Notes under the pieces: generated by a model
The model's database searches: none
Seen by the model: only the letters and a program-made list of their open reading frames with translations
Told to the model about the DNA's origin: nothing
Made by a program: the position numbers and the translations under genes
IMG/VR virus record: IMGVR_UViG_3300035041_000009
Span: 1-52,637 of that record
DNA: 52,637 bases
Reading direction: 5' to 3' (one strand)
Origin: a virus
Part shown: positions 5,351 to 49,073 of the stretch, in pieces
Position numbering within the stretch: the first letter of the stretch is position 1
How the letters are laid out: the number at the start of each line of letters is the position of its first letter

Positions 5351-6169
5351 ATGAGTTCAGCAGAAGAGATGAGGCAGGAGCAGGAAAACGAGTTTGATTC
5401 CGCATGGGAGACCGAAGAAGCCCCCGAAACCGACGAGGAAACCGAAACGCACGAACCGGAAGAACCGGAGAGTGCGCCGGAGAACGAAGGTGACGGCCAG
5501 GCAGAGGAAACCCAGGAGGAAGAAGAAACCCCGGAAGAGAGGCAACGCCGCAAGTCATGGGAAGGTCGCCTGCGCAAGCGCGAGGAAGAACTACGCGCTA
5601 AAGAGCAGGAAATACTCGCAATGCAGCAGCAAAGACAGGACAGCCAGAAGGCCCCTGAGCAGGAGATTGACGAGGACGATCCCGAATGGCAGCAGCTTGT
5701 CGAGGACCTGGGGGAGGACTTGGCACTACGAGTCCGCAAGCAGGCGCAGAGCGTCACGCAGAAAGCCATGCAGTCCGAGCTGGACAAGGTGAGGCAGGAG
5801 ATGCAGCAGCAACTTGAACCCCTCACCAAACAGCAGCAGGAAGTGCAGGCGCAACAGCATGTGAAACGGATCACTGAGAAACACCCTGACGCATTCGATC
5901 TTGTCCAAAGCGGCGACATTCAGGCGTGGGTAGAGGAGAAGCCCGCGTATCTGCAACCCGCATACAGGCAGGTAATCGAGCAGGGAGACGCAGATTCCGT
6001 TGTAGCAATGCTGGACGAGTTCAAGCAATCGAGAAAGACAACTACAAAACAACCGAAAGCACCGCCCGACCAGGCCGTGAAAAGCCGTCGCAGCGGACGT
6101 GTACGAACGACAGCGGCCGCAAAGGACGACTTCGACGCTGCATGGGACGAGGCTGTGCGCAGCGAATAG
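5351..6169 (+). CDS. Putative scaffolding protein
   Basis: Highly acidic N-terminus and long E/Q/R coiled-coil composition. Located between portal and major capsid. ATG 5351 follows GGAGG. Confidence 0.6.
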   Translation: MSSAEEMRQEQENEFDSAWETEEAPETDEETETHEPEEPESAPENEGDGQAEETQEEEETPEERQRRKSWEGRLRKREEELRAKEQEILAMQQQRQDSQKAPEQEIDEDDPEWQQLVEDLGEDLALRVRKQAQSVTQKAMQSELDKVRQEMQQQLEPLTKQQQEVQAQQHVKRITEKHPDAFDLVQSGDIQAWVEEKPAYLQPAYRQVIEQGDADSVVAMLDEFKQSRKTTTKQPKAPPDQAVKSRRSGRVRTTAAAKDDFDAAWDEAVRSE

Positions 6170-9880: not shown

Positions 9881-10178
9881 CAGCAACAAGATATATGTGG
9901 GCGATGTTGGCCTGGCAGTGATCTGCAACATTGGCGTGCAGACGACCTACGCAGAAAACATCGAGCTAAAGGTGCGCAAGCCGGACGGAACGGAAGTTAT
10001 CTGGGGCCCTGGTGAGCCGCACGAGGTTGACGGTGTGCCGAACTACGTGCGGTACATCACCAAAGAAGGCGACCTGGACCAACGAGGGCGCTACAAGATC
10101 CAGCCCAAGCTTAAACTGTCCGGCTGGGAAGGATACGGAGAGACCGACGATATCCGCGTAGACGGGAGGTATAGATAA
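9873..10178 (+). CDS. Small beta-rich structural protein (Ig-like suspected)
   Basis: ATG follows GGAGG and overlaps the upstream gene by 8 nt. Confidence 0.65.
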   Translation: MINSNKIYVGDVGLAVICNIGVQTTYAENIELKVRKPDGTEVIWGPGEPHEVDGVPNYVRYITKEGDLDQRGRYKIQPKLKLSGWEGYGETDDIRVDGRYR

Positions 10179-18399: not shown

Positions 18400-19812
18400 A
18401 TGAGCAGTCAGGGTTTTGTCGGCGGTCTTATGCAAGGCTACGACTTTATGGACGATAGATACAACCGCAAAGCACAGAACGAACGCCTTGCGCGTCAGGA
18501 GGACAGGCAGGACAAGCGCCTGGGGATGCAGGAGGAAGCGCACGAGATAGAAAAAATGCAGCGGGAACGTGCGGACGAAGCGCGGAAGATTCAGGCGGTT
18601 CAATACAAGATGCAGAATCAAGTCCCCCTTTCTGAAGATGAGCAGAAGATTGTAGACCGCTATGCCGGTGACGAACGCACGCAGCGGTTTATGCAGAAGG
18701 TGGAGAAAGACCCGCGCAAGGTGTACAGCGCTGCCGATTCCATCCTGCGGGGCGTCAAGGGTGAAGCGAGCAAGACCGATGTTATCAACGCGAGTAACTA
18801 CCTGTTCGACAGCTGGATCGGTCAAGGGGATGGGAAAAACAAGCGCATATCGGACTTAAAACCCATAGACGGGAAGATATACGCAGAGCTGGAATACGAC
18901 GACGAGGAAACGGGAGAACGCGTGACCGGGGCCCCGCTTACCTACCGACGCAAAAAGAGTGACAGCGTTGTGCGTGATCTTGAAGTGGGTAGAGCGGCGG
19001 AAGCGGCTCAGATGATGAAAGCCCTTGCAGCAGAGCGTATCCGCCTGGGCGACACCGGACCGCTAGAACAGCAGGCGAAGCAACAGCAGGCGCAGCGTGA
19101 ATTGGGGCTTAAACTCTTTGAGCGCGGGCTTGACCGTGAAGATATGGCGATTGAGCACGGGTACGACATGGAGAAGGCGCGCTACGAGGGCAATGTGGAG
19201 TTGCAGAAAGAAGCCGTGAAGAAGGCAGAGCAGGCCCTTGGAGAAATGCAGGGGTATATCGACCAATTATTTGAAGAGCCTGTTCTTGACGAAGAAGGCA
19301 ACCAGATCATGCAGGTGGATATGCAAGGCAACGAAGTTCCGGTTACCCGCACCAACCTGGCAGACAAGGCAGAGTTTGTCGTTTTTACGCTACAACGAGG
19401 GCACCGTAATTGGGACGACTCTTACCGTGAGTTTGTGCAGGTAAAACGACAGCAGGCGCAGCAACGGCAGGCAGAGCTGCGCGCACAACAGGTCCAAGAG
19501 CAGGCGCAGAAGAAGGTCGCGAACACTGAACAGCTAATCCAGGGCGGAGATGTGCAGGCGGCAAAAGAGGTGCTTGCAGAGTACCAAAACCAGACCCCTA
19601 AGGTTTACCAATTCATTATGGAGAACCTCTCCGAAGAAAGCCGCAAGGCGCTTCAACAGCCGGCACAGCAACAGCCTGAAAAAGAGTACACCCTGGGCAA
19701 AGGCTTACAGGACGCAAAGACCAACCTTGGGCGAGTGGGGCAAAAAGCAGCCGGAAAAGCAACCGGGCTTAGCGATTGGGTGGACAGCCTAAACTTTAAT
19801 TGGAAGAAATAA
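18400..19812 (+). CDS. Q/E/K-rich coiled-coil protein (470 aa), probably an internal virion protein
   Basis: Track ORF. SD is GGGGGA. Composition and position support the call. Confidence 0.65.
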   Translation: MSSQGFVGGLMQGYDFMDDRYNRKAQNERLARQEDRQDKRLGMQEEAHEIEKMQRERADEARKIQAVQYKMQNQVPLSEDEQKIVDRYAGDERTQRFMQKVEKDPRKVYSAADSILRGVKGEASKTDVINASNYLFDSWIGQGDGKNKRISDLKPIDGKIYAELEYDDEETGERVTGAPLTYRRKKSDSVVRDLEVGRAAEAAQMMKALAAERIRLGDTGPLEQQAKQQQAQRELGLKLFERGLDREDMAIEHGYDMEKARYEGNVELQKEAVKKAEQALGEMQGYIDQLFEEPVLDEEGNQIMQVDMQGNEVPVTRTNLADKAEFVVFTLQRGHRNWDDSYREFVQVKRQQAQQRQAELRAQQVQEQAQKKVANTEQLIQGGDVQAAKEVLAEYQNQTPKVYQFIMENLSEESRKALQQPAQQQPEKEYTLGKGLQDAKTNLGRVGQKAAGKATGLSDWVDSLNFNWKK

Positions 19813-31092: not shown

Positions 31093-31415
31093 AATTGTCG
31101 GAAACGTGCCACGACATACACAACAAAGTTGGGAACCTGAAAGTAACCGTAACCCTGGTTCTGGCAGCGTTCGGAACCATCCTGGTGTTGACCGGATATA
31201 ACATCAACCAGACCCTACAAACGCGGCAGGAAATGATCCGCACGATGGGCGAAATGCGCACCGAGATACGCGAAGATGTAGCGCGGATCGGCGGGCAAAT
31301 GAGCGCCACAAGTCTACGCATTAAGCATCTGGATGACCGCATATTTGAAAACCGGGAATTACTTGTGGATCACGAAAAGCGGATACAGAGGCTAGAAAAG
31401 CATGGGGGAGAATAA
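31089..31415 (+). CDS. Membrane-anchored coiled-coil lysis protein (i-spanin- or holin-like)
   Basis: One TM segment (VTVTLVLAAFGTILVLTGY) followed by a charged helix. Overlaps the amidase stop. An alternative TTG at 31095 lies 5 nt after GGAGG. Confidence 0.65.
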   Translation: MKLSETCHDIHNKVGNLKVTVTLVLAAFGTILVLTGYNINQTLQTRQEMIRTMGEMRTEIREDVARIGGQMSATSLRIKHLDDRIFENRELLVDHEKRIQRLEKHGGE

Positions 31416-31418
31416 CGG

Positions 31419-31586
31419 GTGCATAGCAATCAAGGCCTACGGAACCTGTCGCTTGAAGAGTTGCAAGGGGTGTCACGCGCAACCTGGCAACGTTGCCCGT
31501 ACTCGTGCTGTGGAGTTTGCCCGTGCCGGACAGCCCGGCAGTGCAGTGCTTGGGATAGATGGCCCTGCAAGGTAGCGGAGGAATAA
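31419..31586 (+). CDS. 55-aa cysteine-rich protein (not in ORF track)
   Basis: GTG follows GGGGGAG. RCPYSCCGVCPCRTARQCSAWDRWPC contains 8 Cys. It abuts the next start. Confidence 0.45.
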   Translation: MHSNQGLRNLSLEELQGVSRATWQRCPYSCCGVCPCRTARQCSAWDRWPCKVAEE

Positions 31587-32249: not shown

Positions 32250-32744
32250 ATGAAACAGTACATCGGAGTAAAAATTATCAACGCAAAACCCATGAACCGC
32301 CAAGAGTACAACGACTTCCGTGGCTGGAAGCTTCCCGAAGATGAAAATGGCGCAGATGAGGGTTACCTGGTCGAGTATGTAGACGGTGGGCAGGCCAATA
32401 CCGAGCAATACGAGGGCTGTGTAAGTTGGTCGCCTAAGGATGTTTTCGAGCGCGCCTACCGCCAGACTGAAGGCATGACATTCGGCATGGCAATAGAGGC
32501 GGCAAAGAAGGGCTGCAAGATCGCACGTAAAGGTTGGAACGGTAAAGGTATGTTCCTGTATTACGTCCCGGCCAATAAATATCCTGCTGTCAATAACAAT
32601 TTGGGAACAATGATGGGTGTCTTTGAAAACGATATGGTTCCCTATGGCGCGTATATCGCGATGAAAACTGCGCAAGATAACGTGGTGCCGTGGCTTGCTT
32701 CGCAAACTGACGTGTTATCTGAAGATTGGGAGATTGTCCGCTAA
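32250..32744 (+). CDS. N4-gp49/Sf6-gp66-like N-terminal domain fused to a DUF2829 (Tad2-like) domain
   Basis: N-terminus: IINAKPMNRQEYNDFRGWKLPEDENGADEGYLVEY...VSWSPKDVFERAY. C-terminus: MTFGMAIEAAKKGCKIARKGWNGKGMF...VPWLASQTDVLSEDWEIV. Confidence 0.8.
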   Translation: MKQYIGVKIINAKPMNRQEYNDFRGWKLPEDENGADEGYLVEYVDGGQANTEQYEGCVSWSPKDVFERAYRQTEGMTFGMAIEAAKKGCKIARKGWNGKGMFLYYVPANKYPAVNNNLGTMMGVFENDMVPYGAYIAMKTAQDNVVPWLASQTDVLSEDWEIVR

Positions 32745-32971
32745 TGGGCAAGATAGAAGTTTTGCCGGAGCAAAGATGGGGTGCGGACGCCGCGCTTCAC
32801 TCCGCTCTGGAATCCATAGGCCCTGAAGATAAGGTGTTGATATTGGGCATTGTGACCCTTGATGACGGTTCGACACAGCGAGTGATGCGTTCTGCGAACA
32901 TGACGCAAGGCGAGGCCCTGTTTGAAGTGGAGCTCAGAAAACTGGAACTATTGACTGAGGCGGAGGACTGA
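32744..32971 (+). CDS. Hypothetical protein (75 aa)
   Basis: TAATG overlap with the upstream stop. Confidence 0.6.
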   Translation: MGKIEVLPEQRWGADAALHSALESIGPEDKVLILGIVTLDDGSTQRVMRSANMTQGEALFEVELRKLELLTEAED

Positions 32972-33112
32972 GTGGCGGAAAGTAAGTGCAAAGCCCCAAC
33001 AGAAGTGTACCAGCGGGTAACCGGCTTCATGCGCCCAGTCCAGACATACAACAAAGGGAAGGCTGAGGAATACCGCGAACGCGTCAACTACAAACCGGAG
33101 GTAACGCCATGA
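32972..33112 (+). CDS. 46-aa stand-alone NrdD-type glycyl-radical-domain peptide (not in ORF track)
   Basis: GTG lies 5 nt after GGAGG (32962-32966). MAESKCKAPTEVYQRVTGFMRPVQTYNKGKAEEYRERVNYKPEVTP resembles the class III RNR C-terminus (..vysRvtGYlrpv..wN.GK..E...R). Confidence 0.55.
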   Translation: MAESKCKAPTEVYQRVTGFMRPVQTYNKGKAEEYRERVNYKPEVTP

Positions 33113-33285
33113 AAAGACTACTCACACTATTTATCATCACCCTCATGCTGTCCGGCTGCGGCCTCAACTGGGAGGCGGGCTTTAGCGTGGGCGTTGATCT
33201 GGCAGAGCTGCGCAAAGAGCGCGAAGCCCAGGGCAAGCCACACATTGAAGATGTAGTATTCGGTGATGAAGATGCAGAAGATTGA
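33109..33285 (+). CDS. Small lipoprotein (58 aa, not in ORF track)
   Basis: ATGA overlap with the upstream stop. MKRLLTLFIITLMLSGC has an LSGC lipobox. Acidic C-terminus. Confidence 0.65.
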   Translation: MKRLLTLFIITLMLSGCGLNWEAGFSVGVDLAELRKEREAQGKPHIEDVVFGDEDAED

Positions 33286-33709
33286 TAGCATTGTCACATA
33301 TAAGAGCGGATACAAGCACCAGAACGATAAGCTGAGGGTGTACCAGACACGCATATGCCCACCCCAGGTGGTAGAATCCCGCTATATCACCTTAAACACA
33401 GACGGGCGCCTATTTATCAACGGCGCATACGCATGGGACGGCCCTACCGGCGTGCCGGAGTGGCTGGTGAAACGCTGGATGAAGTGGCTCATGCGCCCAA
33501 GCCTGATCCATGACGCTCTGTGTCAACTCGCCCGCGAAGGTCTGCTATCCCCCAAATACGCGGAGCAGATAGATATTGAGTTTAAGCTGGCGTGCCACCA
33601 AGACGCGCGTTGGAAGTGGCTTGGCAATACGGCTTACTTCTTTGTGCGCAAGTTCGGCAGTTTTGCCACCGACCCCGCAAACAAGCGGCCAATCCTCACG
33701 GCCCCTTAA
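33263..33709 (+). CDS. DUF1353-like protein
   Basis: YAWDGPTGVP...SLIHDALCQL pattern. The start is ambiguous (GTG 33263, ATG 33266 or ATG 33272). Confidence 0.65.
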   Translation: MMKMQKIDSIVTYKSGYKHQNDKLRVYQTRICPPQVVESRYITLNTDGRLFINGAYAWDGPTGVPEWLVKRWMKWLMRPSLIHDALCQLAREGLLSPKYAEQIDIEFKLACHQDARWKWLGNTAYFFVRKFGSFATDPANKRPILTAP

Positions 33710-34784
33710 TGCCATTGCCCCCGGTAGCCCCTCCTTCTGCCGGGGGATTTTTTAACACCGCGTCCCGCAACGCCTCCGCCATCTCCTGCAGCTGCGGATC
33801 GTACCTGTGTCTGTTGTACGTCTGCGTCAGTTTGTCTACAGAGTGCCCCAGGAACCGATGTATCAGGAAATCGTCAAAACCTTCCGCTGCAAGGATTGTG
33901 GCACATGTCCGGCGAATATCATGCGGGCGATACCTGCGCTTATGCCTCGCACAGTGCGTGGCAAGCCCGCCCTTGGTAGATAGGCCAAACACTCGACCTT
34001 CGCCCTCTCCGATGAACTCCAGAGCCTCAGAGACAAGATAAACGCGCTTATATGTTTTCTTGCCACCCTTGATCTGCTCACATATCCACCACTCTCCGTC
34101 AATGTCGGAATACTTTACACCCTTGCACTCGCCGCCGCGCTGCCCGGTTAGAAGCATAAAATATAGCACCCGGTCTGCTTCGGATTGATCCCTGCGCGCG
34201 ACGATCTCCGCTATCTCTTCACTGTTTAGCACGACCCGGCGCGGCCCGTTCTCTTTAGCTTTGCGCAGATTCACACATGGGTTTGCTTCAATCCAGCCCA
34301 TTTGGCAAGCATAGGTGCATATCCTTGACACCCTGGACTTTGTGATATTGTATTGCCGCGGCGTGCTTTTTTTATGTTCGAGCAATTCAGCCACATGCAC
34401 ACGCTTTAGCTTGTCAATCGGCATATCCCCGATGTAGGGGTAAACGTCCTGCTTCAGAGAACGCTTGGCCTCCTTTCCCTCGTCTGCGTAGTTGAAGGTT
34501 TCTATAGCCTTTTTAGCGACCTGCTCAAAGGTGAGCCCCGGCCTGCCGATGTCTCCGCGCTCTCTTTGAGACACCAGCTTTGCATGGGCCTGACGCGCTT
34601 CGTGTAGTCCAAGTGCCGGGTAACCACCTATGCGCTTTTGTTTACGCTTGCCCTTTTCCTGAAAGCGGTAGTACCAGGTTTTCTTTCCGGACGGCTCTAT
34701 GTATAGTGTCAAGCCGTCGCCGTCGGTGACAGAATACCGCTTTTCTTTCGGTTTCAGGCTCTTTACTTTTCGGTCTGATAACAT
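33696..34784 (-). CDS. int: Tyrosine integrase, P4-type (Arm/DUF4102 N-terminus)
   Basis: MLSDRKVKSLKPKEKRYSVTDGDGLTLYIEPSGKKTWYYRF at the N-terminus. Catalytic region HDIRRTCATILA...LGHS...Y. ATG 34784 lies 5 nt after GGAGG. Confidence 0.9.
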   Translation of the reverse strand: MLSDRKVKSLKPKEKRYSVTDGDGLTLYIEPSGKKTWYYRFQEKGKRKQKRIGGYPALGLHEARQAHAKLVSQRERGDIGRPGLTFEQVAKKAIETFNYADEGKEAKRSLKQDVYPYIGDMPIDKLKRVHVAELLEHKKSTPRQYNITKSRVSRICTYACQMGWIEANPCVNLRKAKENGPRRVVLNSEEIAEIVARRDQSEADRVLYFMLLTGQRGGECKGVKYSDIDGEWWICEQIKGGKKTYKRVYLVSEALEFIGEGEGRVFGLSTKGGLATHCARHKRRYRPHDIRRTCATILAAEGFDDFLIHRFLGHSVDKLTQTYNRHRYDPQLQEMAEALRDAVLKNPPAEGGATGGNGIKGP

Positions 34785-34930
34785 GCCCGCCTCCATGTGC
34801 CATTTCATGTGCCAGTGATGGGTTACAATGTGACACAACATGACACATAAAGTCTATATGTTGTTTTACAAGGTACTGAAATTGCAGGTATTTTTTCATA
34901 CATTCCAGTTACTTACAAAACCCGGAATTA

Positions 34931-34977
34931 GCCTCCTAAGCGATAGGCCGCAGGTTCGAATCCTGCCGGGACCGCCA
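34931..34977 (+). other. attP core: 3' portion (anticodon loop to CCA) of a tRNA-Arg(CCU)
   Basis: GCCTCCTAAGCGATAGGCC-GCAGG-TTCGAAT-CCTGC-CGGGACC-G-CCA. No matching 5' acceptor strand (GGTCCCG) lies upstream, so it is a fragment. It is adjacent to int. Confidence 0.7.
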
Positions 34978-34982
34978 TAAAA

Positions 34983-35018
34983 AACAAGCCCTTAGCCGTG
35001 AATGGTTAAGGGCTTGTT
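34983..35018. terminator. Perfect 12-bp hairpin flanked by an A-run and a T-run (bidirectional terminator candidate)
   Basis: AACAAGCCCTTA (34983-34994) pairs with TAAGGGCTTGTT (35007-35018). A6 upstream, TATTT downstream. Confidence 0.6.
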
Positions 35019-47916: not shown

Positions 47917-48366
47917 GTGAATGATTCGGCGGAAAGTTTAGAGCAACTTTTTTTAAAAGAGCGCATACGCCACAATGCAGAATATTTAGAGCGCAGAAGG
48001 GTGGAGCCACGCCTGGGCCTGTGCCTGTCATGCGGAGAAGTTAAGATACTGGACATGGAGGGTGCCATGGGTGAGTGCAGCGAATGTCTTTCGGGGCAAA
48101 AAACGTTTGAGGGCGATGTAACGCGAGTGTTGGATAACTTAAAAGAAATTTTGCTTCAGAAAAACCGCAAGTACGGGGATGCTGCCCTCAATCCCATCCG
48201 CATCTTCGCGAAGTCTGACGCAGTGGAGCAGATCAGGGTGCGGATAGACGATAAGCTCAAGCGCATACAGAACCGGCAGGATGACGAAGACGAGGATGTG
48301 GAGTTGGATCTGTTGGGATATCTGGTGCTGCTGAGGATAGCGAAAAGGAAAGGCGGTGAAGCATGA
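47917..48366 (+). CDS. Zinc-ribbon plus DUF1599 (nucleotide-modification-associated domain 1) protein
   Basis: CLSCG...CSEC, then LLQKNRKYGDAALNP...RIDDKLKRI...DLLGYLVLL. GTG 47917 follows AAAGGGG. Confidence 0.65.
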   Translation: MNDSAESLEQLFLKERIRHNAEYLERRRVEPRLGLCLSCGEVKILDMEGAMGECSECLSGQKTFEGDVTRVLDNLKEILLQKNRKYGDAALNPIRIFAKSDAVEQIRVRIDDKLKRIQNRQDDEDEDVELDLLGYLVLLRIAKRKGGEA

Positions 48367-49073
48367 ACGTAACCCTTATATCACACACAGATATGCCCAC
48401 CACCACCTGCGCCCGCGCTGCCAGGACATGCACATCGGTACACCCGTGGGCAGAATATGACCCTGATAAACTATTACGCCGCGTACTTGACATGGGCCAT
48501 GAGTCCATCGCAGAACACGCTAGCTTTACTTTCGTAATCGAGGGCATCAGCCGCGCATGTAGTCACCAGCTTGTGAGGTACCGCCATGCCAGTTATGCCC
48601 AGCAGAGTCAGCGCTATGTGAAACTAAGCCCGGACTGTGCGAGTCACGAATGGTACGTGATGCCTGACACTGTTCAGGGCAATAGAAAAACTGCCAGCCG
48701 TATGGCCAGGGCAATGCAGGAGGTCCGCGAGGCGTACCATGACCTATTGGACGAAGGTGTGCCGGCTGAGGACGCACGCTTTGTGCTTCCCAACGCCGCA
48801 TGTACAAACATTACAGTAACGCTCAACGCCGCCGAACTCCGCCATATGATGCGGCAGAGGCTGTGCAATCGGGCGCAGTGGGAGATTAGGGCCCTTGTGG
48901 GCGAGATGGCAGAGCTTGCGCGTGGAGTTGCTCCTGTGCTGTTTGAGGGGGTTGGGCCGGCATGTTTGAGCGGGGAGTGTCCGGAAGGAAAACGCAGCTG
49001 TGGCAGATGCGGAAGACCGTTCTGGCATGATCTTGAAAAACGGAGAAAAGAAGGCGAGTTTACAAACAGCTAA
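48363..49073 (+). CDS. thyX: FAD-dependent thymidylate synthase ThyX
   Basis: HESIAEHASFTF and the ThyX motif RHASYAQQSQRY (RHRxxSxxxxSxR type). Confidence 0.88.
   Translation: MNVTLISHTDMPTTTCARAARTCTSVHPWAEYDPDKLLRRVLDMGHESIAEHASFTFVIEGISRACSHQLVRYRHASYAQQSQRYVKLSPDCASHEWYVMPDTVQGNRKTASRMARAMQEVREAYHDLLDEGVPAEDARFVLPNAACTNITVTLNAAELRHMMRQRLCNRAQWEIRALVGEMAELARGVAPVLFEGVGPACLSGECPEGKRSCGRCGRPFWHDLEKRRKEGEFTNS

Follow-up and report, generated by a model that had tools for sequence, protein, structure and literature searches.

The window analyzed here is the whole of a 52,637-nucleotide (nt) stretch of viral DNA, IMG/VR record IMGVR_UViG_3300035041_000009, and the element under study is a small open reading frame (ORF) within it whose 46-amino-acid (aa) product, MAESKCKAPTEVYQRVTGFMRPVQTYNKGKAEEYRERVNYKPEVTP, resembles the extreme C-terminus of NrdD, the anaerobic, or class III, ribonucleotide reductase (RNR). 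We refer to this product as a mini-NrdD. The position of the ORF, its GTG start 5 nt downstream of GGAGG, and its ATGA coupling to the next gene are exactly as claimed in the original prediction, which was made from the letters of the DNA (Table 1). The TGA stop codon (32969-32971) of an upstream 81-aa ORF abuts the GTG, and the ATG of a downstream 58-aa ORF, at position 33109, overlaps the TGA of the mini-NrdD gene. In our reading, the ORF is real and translated and serves a temperate phage as an accessory gene.

A Pfam scan of the peptide returned PF13597 (NRDD) alone, with an E value of 1.4e-8 (34.3 bits; gathering cutoff, 26.2). Residues 5 to 40 aligned with positions 526 to 562 of the 562-position profile, that is, with its last 37 positions only, and the resemblance to the glycyl-radical C-terminus of NrdD claimed in the original prediction was thus borne out. 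Several NCBIfam NrdD equivalogs also matched the peptide, solely at their extreme C-termini and with 10 to 28 bits against cutoffs of 326 to 585 bits. The best PDB match was weak (E = 0.31) and covered residues 610 to 642 of the 651-residue Thermotoga maritima NrdD; in this match, Gly18 of the peptide aligned with the Gly of RIVGY. The peptide retains C6, E11, R15, G18, R21, P22, V23, N27, G29, K30, E33, and R37. It is a fragment-sized NrdD homologue, lacking the ten-stranded barrel, the catalytic Cys finger loop, and the nucleotide-binding sites. The original prediction had also proposed an alignment to GrcA; PF01228 (Gly_radical, the GrcA/YfiD type) did not match the peptide even at an E value of ≤10, so the peptide is no GrcA homologue. 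When the peptide was modeled alone with AlphaFold2 from a 98-sequence alignment, the result was mostly coil (predicted local distance difference test score [pLDDT], 69.8; predicted template modeling score [pTM], 0.21), a lack of autonomous fold that one would expect of a loop whose folding takes place within a partner. As had been claimed, no NrdD body or NrdG was found in the window, either by tblastn with one cellular NrdD and NrdG or in Pfam and PHROGs scans of the neighbors of the mini-NrdD gene and the replication genes. A megablast search of the locus against deposited phages and Escherichia coli genomes returned nothing, and PHROGs has no family for the mini-NrdD or its two small neighbors.

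Profile searches placed the peptide in a family. A profile built from nine sequences, run against 1.84 billion cluster representatives, gave 3,676 representatives at an E value of ≤1e-3 and 425 at ≤1e-10, and the best 150 were all 46 to 190 aa long. A second profile, built from 98 sequences (alignment A2) and counted in clusters at 90% identity, gave at least 7,970 clusters at an E value of ≤1e-6, the top 120 being 44 to 94 aa long. As defined in this analysis, a mini-NrdD is the product of an independent ORF of ~44 to 70 aa that starts a few residues before a conserved Cys and has the consensus E-V-Y-x-R-V-x-G-[FY]-x-R-P-V-x-x-[WY]-N-x-G-K. The window peptide fits this definition, and by sequence it belongs to what is a very large family of stand-alone 44- to 70-aa mini-NrdD proteins. 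Every one of the 98 A2 sequences has the Gly, and the window peptide retains each of the family-invariant residues E11, R15, G18, R21, K30, and R37. Among 158 family proteins, 151 start with Met, the modal position of the Gly is residue 16, and 111 have a Cys at position −12 relative to the Gly, with the Met ~3 residues before this conserved Cys. We considered whether family members could be contig-edge fragments of full-length NrdD and rejected this; the Met starts and the sharp peak in the position of the Gly indicate genuine small ORFs. In the source databases, family members are named either “anaerobic ribonucleoside-triphosphate reductase” or “hypothetical protein,” and Pfam, NCBIfam, and PHROGs hold no model dedicated to them. 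Another viral contig (L175; IMGVR_UViG_3300033487_000228, ~490 to 597) encodes a longer stand-alone protein of 64 aa (MPRCGKCGSELIDVCPECKQPVDVYSRVVGYMRPV...) that comprises the complete glycyl-radical domain, with the whole CxxC...CxxC ribbon and the Gly loop.

Eight close homologues of the window mini-NrdD, 45 to 57 aa long, were found in metagenomes. The invariant core of this close set (alignment A1) is K-C-x4-EVYQRVTGF-x-RPVQT-x-NKGK-x-EE; Cys6 is invariant in A1 and present in at least 90% of A2. Two of the related contigs (L001 and L002) have ATG at the start position where the window has GTG. Over a 40-codon core, the window and L002 differ by 14 synonymous and 5 nonsynonymous changes, for a ratio of nonsynonymous to synonymous substitution rates (dN/dS) of 0.058. 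The window mini-NrdD is therefore under strong purifying selection. Fragmented nrdD genes are known in phages, arising through introns, inteins, and homing endonucleases, and the peptide might on that precedent be regarded as the nonfunctional remnant of a once complete phage nrdD. The dN/dS value excludes a decayed remnant, and the ribosome-binding site and start are conserved. Moreover, in hundreds of clusters the length is sharply conserved and the start falls shortly ahead of the Cys, mini-NrdDs occur independently in unrelated phage types, and no remnant of an NrdD body lies upstream. We regard this explanation as effectively refuted.

Cellular genomes revealed the setting in which the cellular members of the family are encoded. 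On a 317-kb contig of GCA_964604705.1 (L011), a 692-aa nrdD (ATP-cone plus NRDD) is followed by a gene for a 54-aa mini-NrdD and then by a radical-SAM nrdG. The large protein ends ...GEHHQCPHH...ADRR-stop (TPTFSICPVHGYIRGEHHQCPHHKEDEAQ...ADRR), and the glycyl-radical motif is absent from it; the mini-NrdD begins MSKKCMEKTEVYSRVVGYFRPV... and is encoded in a frame other than that of nrdD, with its own GGAGG. A first scan of GTDB with window-specific patterns (YQRVTGF[FM] and PVQT[YF]NKG) yielded no confirmed locus, and the broader family profile was needed. With that profile, applied to one genome per species, more than 587 matches were confirmed, and the contexts of the best 80 were classified. 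An NrdD body, a mini-NrdD, and NrdG were encoded together at 65 of these 80 loci; 1 locus had an NrdD body and a mini-NrdD, 3 had a mini-NrdD and NrdG (two of them at contig edges), 7 had a lone mini-NrdD, and 4 (archaea and Aquificaceae) had a full-length NrdD. The split loci came mainly from Desulfuromonadales, among them the isolates Malonomonas rubra DSM 5091 and Geothermobacter hydrogeniphilus HR-1 as well as several assemblies at chromosome level; also represented among the GTDB loci were Victivallales, Spirochaetota/Leptospirales, Omnitrophota, Planctomycetia, and others. Three abundant metagenomic family members were likewise located in split operons. Selenocysteine insertion, stop codon readthrough, and frameshifting were considered as causes of the split and rejected: TAA, TAG, and TGA stops all occur, the mini-NrdD ORF is found in all relative frames, and the median gap is ~55 nt, so the split NrdD is not a product of recoding. 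One cellular split operon (the context of P0218; ENA ERZ1426847 and ERZ1426660) has two tandem mini-NrdD genes (51 and 50 aa) between nrdD (666 aa) and nrdG, which suggests selection for the dosage of the radical subunit. From gene order and sequence, we conclude that nrdD body, mini-NrdD, and nrdG together encode a true two-polypeptide class III RNR, of which the mini-NrdD is the small subunit predicted to bear the radical. Two cellular loci differ in layout. In a Desulfuromusa metagenome-assembled genome (MAG), a mini-NrdD gene (L091, ~5682 to 5792) is paired with nrdG with no nrdD upstream, and in a low-GC MAG a lone chromosomal mini-NrdD gene (L019; JABGVJ010000096.1, ~10001 to 10129) lies beside uvrA, rpmE, and prfA, where no phage genes were recognized from nearby ORF sequences (no family scan was run).

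The two polypeptides meet within a zinc ribbon. Full-length relatives read ...GEHF-x-CP-x-C-G-x-x-TEVYSRVVGY... at the corresponding junction (e.g., CPKCG..TEVYSRVVGY), and in the split large subunits the C-terminus is ...GEHF-x-CP-[H/Y/C]-x followed by a short tail, i.e., it falls inside the ribbon. In none of 61 split large subunits is the fourth zinc-ligand position occupied by a Cys. The mini-NrdD begins ~3 residues ahead of the corresponding Cys; the structural zinc site's fourth ligand is therefore carried by the small subunit, and the arrangement suggests that the zinc site may be completed in trans, aiding docking. In the Desulfuromonadales (among L013 to L092), the large subunits share a ...CPHH-x-EG-x-AA-stop tail, in which the conservation of the terminal Ala-Ala is striking; this pair might act as a signal for docking or processing.

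Outside the split operons, the context of a mini-NrdD gene is almost always viral. The survey of phages for homologous micro-ORFs that the original prediction had proposed led to 248 IMG/VR contigs confirmed to carry a family member. Among the best 80 of these loci, whose contexts were read, the mini-NrdD gene was alone, neither an NrdD body nor NrdG being encoded within 5 kb, in all 79 that could be classified. Mu-like prophages of an uncultured Desulfuromusa (P0229, on a 3-Mb contig) and of Desulfuromonas acetoxidans (P0225) carry it between gam/early genes and gemA/mor, and at another locus (L024) it adjoins GemA. In a Victivallaceae genome (L040), a lone mini-NrdD gene lies between AAA_24 and DUF669/RusA in a lambdoid replication module, and in a Desulfuromonadales genome (L042) it follows a Peptidase_M15 endolysin gene near an integrase gene. 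In each of two MAGs, a split operon coexists with a lone copy borne by a prophage (42485_Bin_1, with L020 and L042; MAG38, with L056 and L024). Among 50,697 deposited phage genomes, no lone mini-NrdD was found and only full-length NrdDs matched; the lone form is thus unseen in the cultured phages of that collection. The window copy shares with the cellular operon copies (L013 to L092) its family, a core identity of 50 to 67%, a length class, a start near the Cys, and the invariant E, R, G, R, K, and R residues. Unlike them, it is not flanked by an nrdD body or nrdG but stands alone on a phage genome, and it belongs to the phage-borne subgroup, outside the operon subgroup, and to a phage-only subclade (YQRV..TYNKGK). 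Compared with their best cellular operon counterparts, phage mini-NrdDs had a median identity of 75% over 36 aa, and they mirrored lineage signatures: GYFRPV[SA]NWN in Victivallales, CGFFRPVQQWN in Desulfuromonadales, and the Cys-less KVPVEVYSRVVGYFRPV type in Spirochaetota. The presence or absence of the Cys agreed in 88 of 90 phage/best-operon pairs. Such lineage matching is the pattern expected if the phage copies must work with the large subunit and activase of the host.

We consider it rather probable that host NrdG activates the phage peptide and that the peptide docks into the NrdD body of the host to serve as its replaceable glycyl-radical subunit. In an infected or lysogenic cell, host NrdG would take the phage peptide and abstract a hydrogen from Gly18. 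The loop of the peptide would then enter the barrel of the large NrdD subunit of the host, with Cys6 perhaps aiding docking by completing the zinc site, and the glycyl radical would generate the catalytic thiyl radical. In GREs (glycyl-radical enzymes), oxygen cleaves the chain at the radical Gly (2026 GRE review). In a split enzyme, such cleavage would cost just a cheap 5-kDa subunit, and the supply of the peptide may then limit the amount of active RNR. Extra phage copies would raise or restore anaerobic deoxynucleoside triphosphate (dNTP) synthesis for phage DNA replication or might serve as a lysogenic-conversion benefit; the tandem copies in some cellular operons and the capture of the gene by many phages would both fit a dosage benefit. 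The window phage thus probably supplies an extra radical “cartridge” for DNA precursor synthesis. Activation by NrdG, docking, and benefit to the phage are steps that we infer from homology and gene context.

The original prediction had framed the peptide by analogy with GrcA. Part of that framing stands, in that the peptide is the product of a stand-alone phage gene. The peptide is, however, no isolated oddity but one member of a huge family, and its cellular relatives are the small subunit of a split NrdD, encoded between an nrdD without the Gly loop and nrdG; the cellular operons make a phage-borne version of the detachable radical subunit of the host the closest model and rescue of a cleaved full-length NrdD a less direct analogy. 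Phage T4 Y06I is a GrcA homologue, and phages can thus carry such a part. The proposed role of the mini-NrdD would share with GrcA/YfiD and Y06I the concept of a small stand-alone glycyl-radical carrier that uses the activase of the parent enzyme and acts in trans. GrcA/YfiD of E. coli is an autonomous glycyl-radical cofactor and a spare part for oxygen-cleaved pyruvate formate-lyase (PFL) (2026 GRE review). There is no sequence relationship between GrcA and the window peptide, the parent enzyme is PFL rather than RNR, and GrcA is 127 aa long versus 46 aa. A cellular mini-NrdD, unlike GrcA, provides the sole Gly loop of its operon's enzyme and would hence be an obligatory subunit there, not a backup copy. 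On a strictly GrcA-like model, the peptide together with NrdG would replace the C-terminal piece of an oxygen-cleaved full-length host NrdD and so restore its activity. This model draws on the same homology and conservation evidence as the replaceable-subunit explanation, and the peptide does extend to either side of the Gly, like GrcA with respect to PFL; moreover, the host could have a full-length NrdD, the only named capsid relative coming from a gammaproteobacterial MAG. However, NrdD is already split wherever the host lineage can be inferred, the strictly conserved Cys (the fourth zinc ligand) would be redundant beside the intact ribbon of a full-length enzyme, and the deposited phage genomes contain no lone copy. 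We consider the strictly GrcA-like model unlikely.

Several observations weigh against the replaceable-subunit explanation for the window copy. The gene is found where the late/lysis region ends, not among the replication genes, and it is coupled to a lipoprotein gene. The host, to which the portal and capsid relatives gave no lead, could have a split NrdD, a full-length NrdD, or no class III RNR at all: the closest cultured phages, which infect diverse Proteobacteria, have only 31 to 36% portal identity, and the capsid relatives are almost all metagenome proteins, with one, at 72%, from a “Candidatus Thiodiazotropha” MAG. The window mini-NrdD (YQRVTGFM...TYNKGK) is among those most divergent from the cellular ones, with a best identity of 67%, and all examined members of its “YQRV...TYNKGK” subclade are on phage or mobile contigs; a diverged function of this subclade, such as inhibition, is possible. 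As for the zinc site, the Spirochaetota-type mini-NrdDs lack the Cys, and most large subunits have a His at CP-H. Finally, radical formation by any mini-NrdD, cellular or viral, is itself a prediction.

An alternative is that the peptide acts as a decoy or inhibitor that vies for NrdG or the barrel with the small subunit of the host or with the C-terminus of NrdD. Anaerobic dNTP synthesis in the host would thereby be shut down or retuned, and the prophage might, for example, encode in this way a brake on growth or a means of exclusion. The subclade of the window peptide, phage-only as far as examined, has substitutions beside the Gly loop (S to Q at −4 and W to Y at +9), and the window gene is found in an accessory region near a Tad2-like gene, outside the replication module. 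The Gly and every family-invariant residue are nevertheless kept, other phages carry their copies among early or replication genes, and, with no phage RNR to replace the host enzyme, inhibition would starve the phage's own replication under anoxia. A decoy role is in our estimation quite unlikely.

Full-length phage NrdDs (T4 NrdD, Clostridium phage phiCTP1 gp46, and that of Oceanotoga phage vB_OteS-UFV02) have a homologous Gly loop, with 42 to 53% identity to the window peptide over ~35 aa, but each is a whole enzyme of 585 to 802 aa, whereas the peptide corresponds to the last ~40 residues. The class II RNR of Pseudomonas aeruginosa, NrdJa/NrdJb, assembles its catalytic subunit from two polypeptides; analyses of RNR architecture mention split enzymes only for class II, and a survey of phage RNRs lists split nrd genes only as split by introns, inteins, or homing endonuclease genes. 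These are precedents for a two-polypeptide RNR, but they differ in class, split point, and cause; at the split-NrdD junction there is no mobile element, the gap being ~55 nt. In addition, all pieces of such intron-, intein-, or endonuclease-split genes or of NrdJ are present in one genome, and the window phage carries one piece. The original prediction knew of no described NrdD equivalent of GrcA, and the searchable literature indeed contains none; according to the 2026 GRE review, formate lyases are the only enzymes with known spare-part proteins, and the existence of such proteins for other GREs is “yet to be determined.” We found nothing in the literature on a split or truncated NrdD or an NrdD small subunit; closed-access work was outside this search, and priority is no certainty. 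What appears to be new in the searchable literature is thus the stand-alone small subunit of a split class III RNR, that is, a detachable radical subunit, together with a phage gene that would supply it.

Put generally, the proposal is that class III RNR in many anaerobes is a two-polypeptide enzyme with a detachable radical subunit of ~50 residues, which would make an oxygen-labile cofactor cheaply replaceable, and that this subunit has been captured alone by hundreds of uncultivated phages, including the window phage. We give this general statement a slightly better than even chance. If true, it would describe the first spare-part system for a GRE other than PFL and the smallest known radical-carrying protein subunit. 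The present data open the question of spare parts in other GREs to direct testing. The split NrdD of cultivable Desulfuromonadales would present the radical domain as a separate 5-kDa peptide, suited to the study of activase recognition, radical transfer, and oxygen damage. The lone phage copies suggest that auxiliary metabolic genes include a new class, one that would supply a consumable protein cofactor and no enzyme. There are also consequences for annotation: thousands of mini-NrdD ORFs are labeled “anaerobic ribonucleoside-triphosphate reductase” or hypothetical or are not called at all, and the nrdD genes beside them may pass for truncated pseudogenes.

The window reads as a complete-looking temperate phage genome of the N4-capsid type. 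It encodes a terminase, a portal, and an N4-gp56-type capsid, and the other genes recognized include those for an Amidase_3 endolysin, tRNA-Tyr, a CI repressor, KilA-N, Rad52- and RecE-like recombination proteins, and Dam and C5 methylases. The P4-type integrase probably targets a tRNA gene, with the adjacent tRNA-like sequence as the attP core. ThyX is the only other nucleotide-supply gene product recognized among the scanned ORFs of the window, and its presence indicates that the window phage also invests in dNTP supply. A ThyX gene (PF02511) is found as well in a 60%-related phage lineage that carries a mini-NrdD (L004, 3931 to 4593, minus strand). A homologue of the giant ORF, on a contig whose capsid is 98% identical, contains LPD5, LPD1, RadC, AcrIF11-like ADP-ribosyltransferase, and LPD38 domains.

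Table 1. Positions of the mini-NrdD gene, its sequence features, and other genes and elements of the window
Feature	Position	Strand	Remarks
mini-NrdD gene	32972..33112	+	46 aa, GTG start; glycyl-radical loop and C-terminal tail of class III RNR
Shine-Dalgarno sequence GGAGG	32962..32966	+	5-nt spacer to GTG; kept in L001/L002
Cys6 codon TGC	32987..32989	+	12 residues N-terminal of Gly18; homologous to fourth zinc ligand (CPxC) of full-length relatives
Gly18 codon GGC	33023..33025	+	Predicted radical-bearing Gly in RVTGF (RVxG[FY] motif, R15-V16-T17-G18-F19)
Tad2-like gene	32250..32744	+	PF11195, E = 7e-26; first gene of accessory cluster, two genes upstream of mini-NrdD gene
81-aa ORF upstream of mini-NrdD gene	32726..32971	+	No family match; conserved as a 75- to 81-aa gene in L001 and L093-L098
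58-aa predicted lipoprotein (MKRLLTLFIITLMLSGC...)	33109..33285	+	Small, acidic; weak LPAM_1 match; ATGA overlap with mini-NrdD gene
Terminator-like hairpin	33729..33747	+	Closes rightward cluster just before convergent integrase gene; consensus scan only
P4-type integrase	33696-34841	-	Beside tRNA-3'-end-like sequence
tRNA-3'-end-like sequence (...GGTTCGAATCCTGCCGGGACCGCCA)	34930-34985		Next to integrase; probable attP core
ThyX thymidylate synthase	48363..49073	+	PF02511, E = 2e-61
Giant 3,480-aa ORF, polyvalent protein	19800-30242	+	Homologue on related contig

The mini-NrdD gene belongs to an accessory cluster that is flanked by the lysis genes and the integrase gene and runs in the order Tad2-like gene, 81-aa ORF, mini-NrdD, lipoprotein, and 148-aa ORF. 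The cassette is conserved on six contigs. The Tad2-like gene, a 75- to 81-aa ORF, the mini-NrdD gene, and the 58-aa lipoprotein gene occur together on two 56-kb IMG/VR contigs and several metagenome contigs. The Tad2-like protein is a candidate anti-Thoeris counterdefense product. The mini-NrdD/lipoprotein pair is kept in a 60%-identical phage (L003) and on the P0001 contigs. This pairing, the ATGA overlap, and the location downstream of lysis genes raise the idea that the peptide has a function unrelated to ribonucleotide reduction and tied to its lipoprotein or membrane partner, such as a radical- or oxygen-sensing module for lysis timing or the envelope, and single-ORF fusions of a mini-NrdD to a transmembrane (TM)/lipobox segment do exist. 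However, such a neighbor or fusion was seen for only 9 of 71 distinct phage mini-NrdDs, and the sequence constraints equal those of the cellular RNR subunits. We rejected a family-wide functional link to lipoproteins on this count, and a lipoprotein-tied function for the window copy is very unlikely. In some Victivallales-type phages, the mini-NrdD is fused in a single ORF to the TM/lipobox segment and an extracytoplasmic domain; coupling to or fusion with a lipoprotein is listed for L003 (8147 to 8305), P0033, P0042, P0083, P0120, P0142, L132, and L157. A conserved small Cys-rich ORF with the motif C-x-[IV]-A-I-[KA]-A-Y-G-x-C-x-L-x-x-C-x-x-C-H-[AG] is present near the lysis genes of three related phages (window, 31402 to 31575, plus strand; L001, 6833 to 6985; L003, 7805 to 8026).

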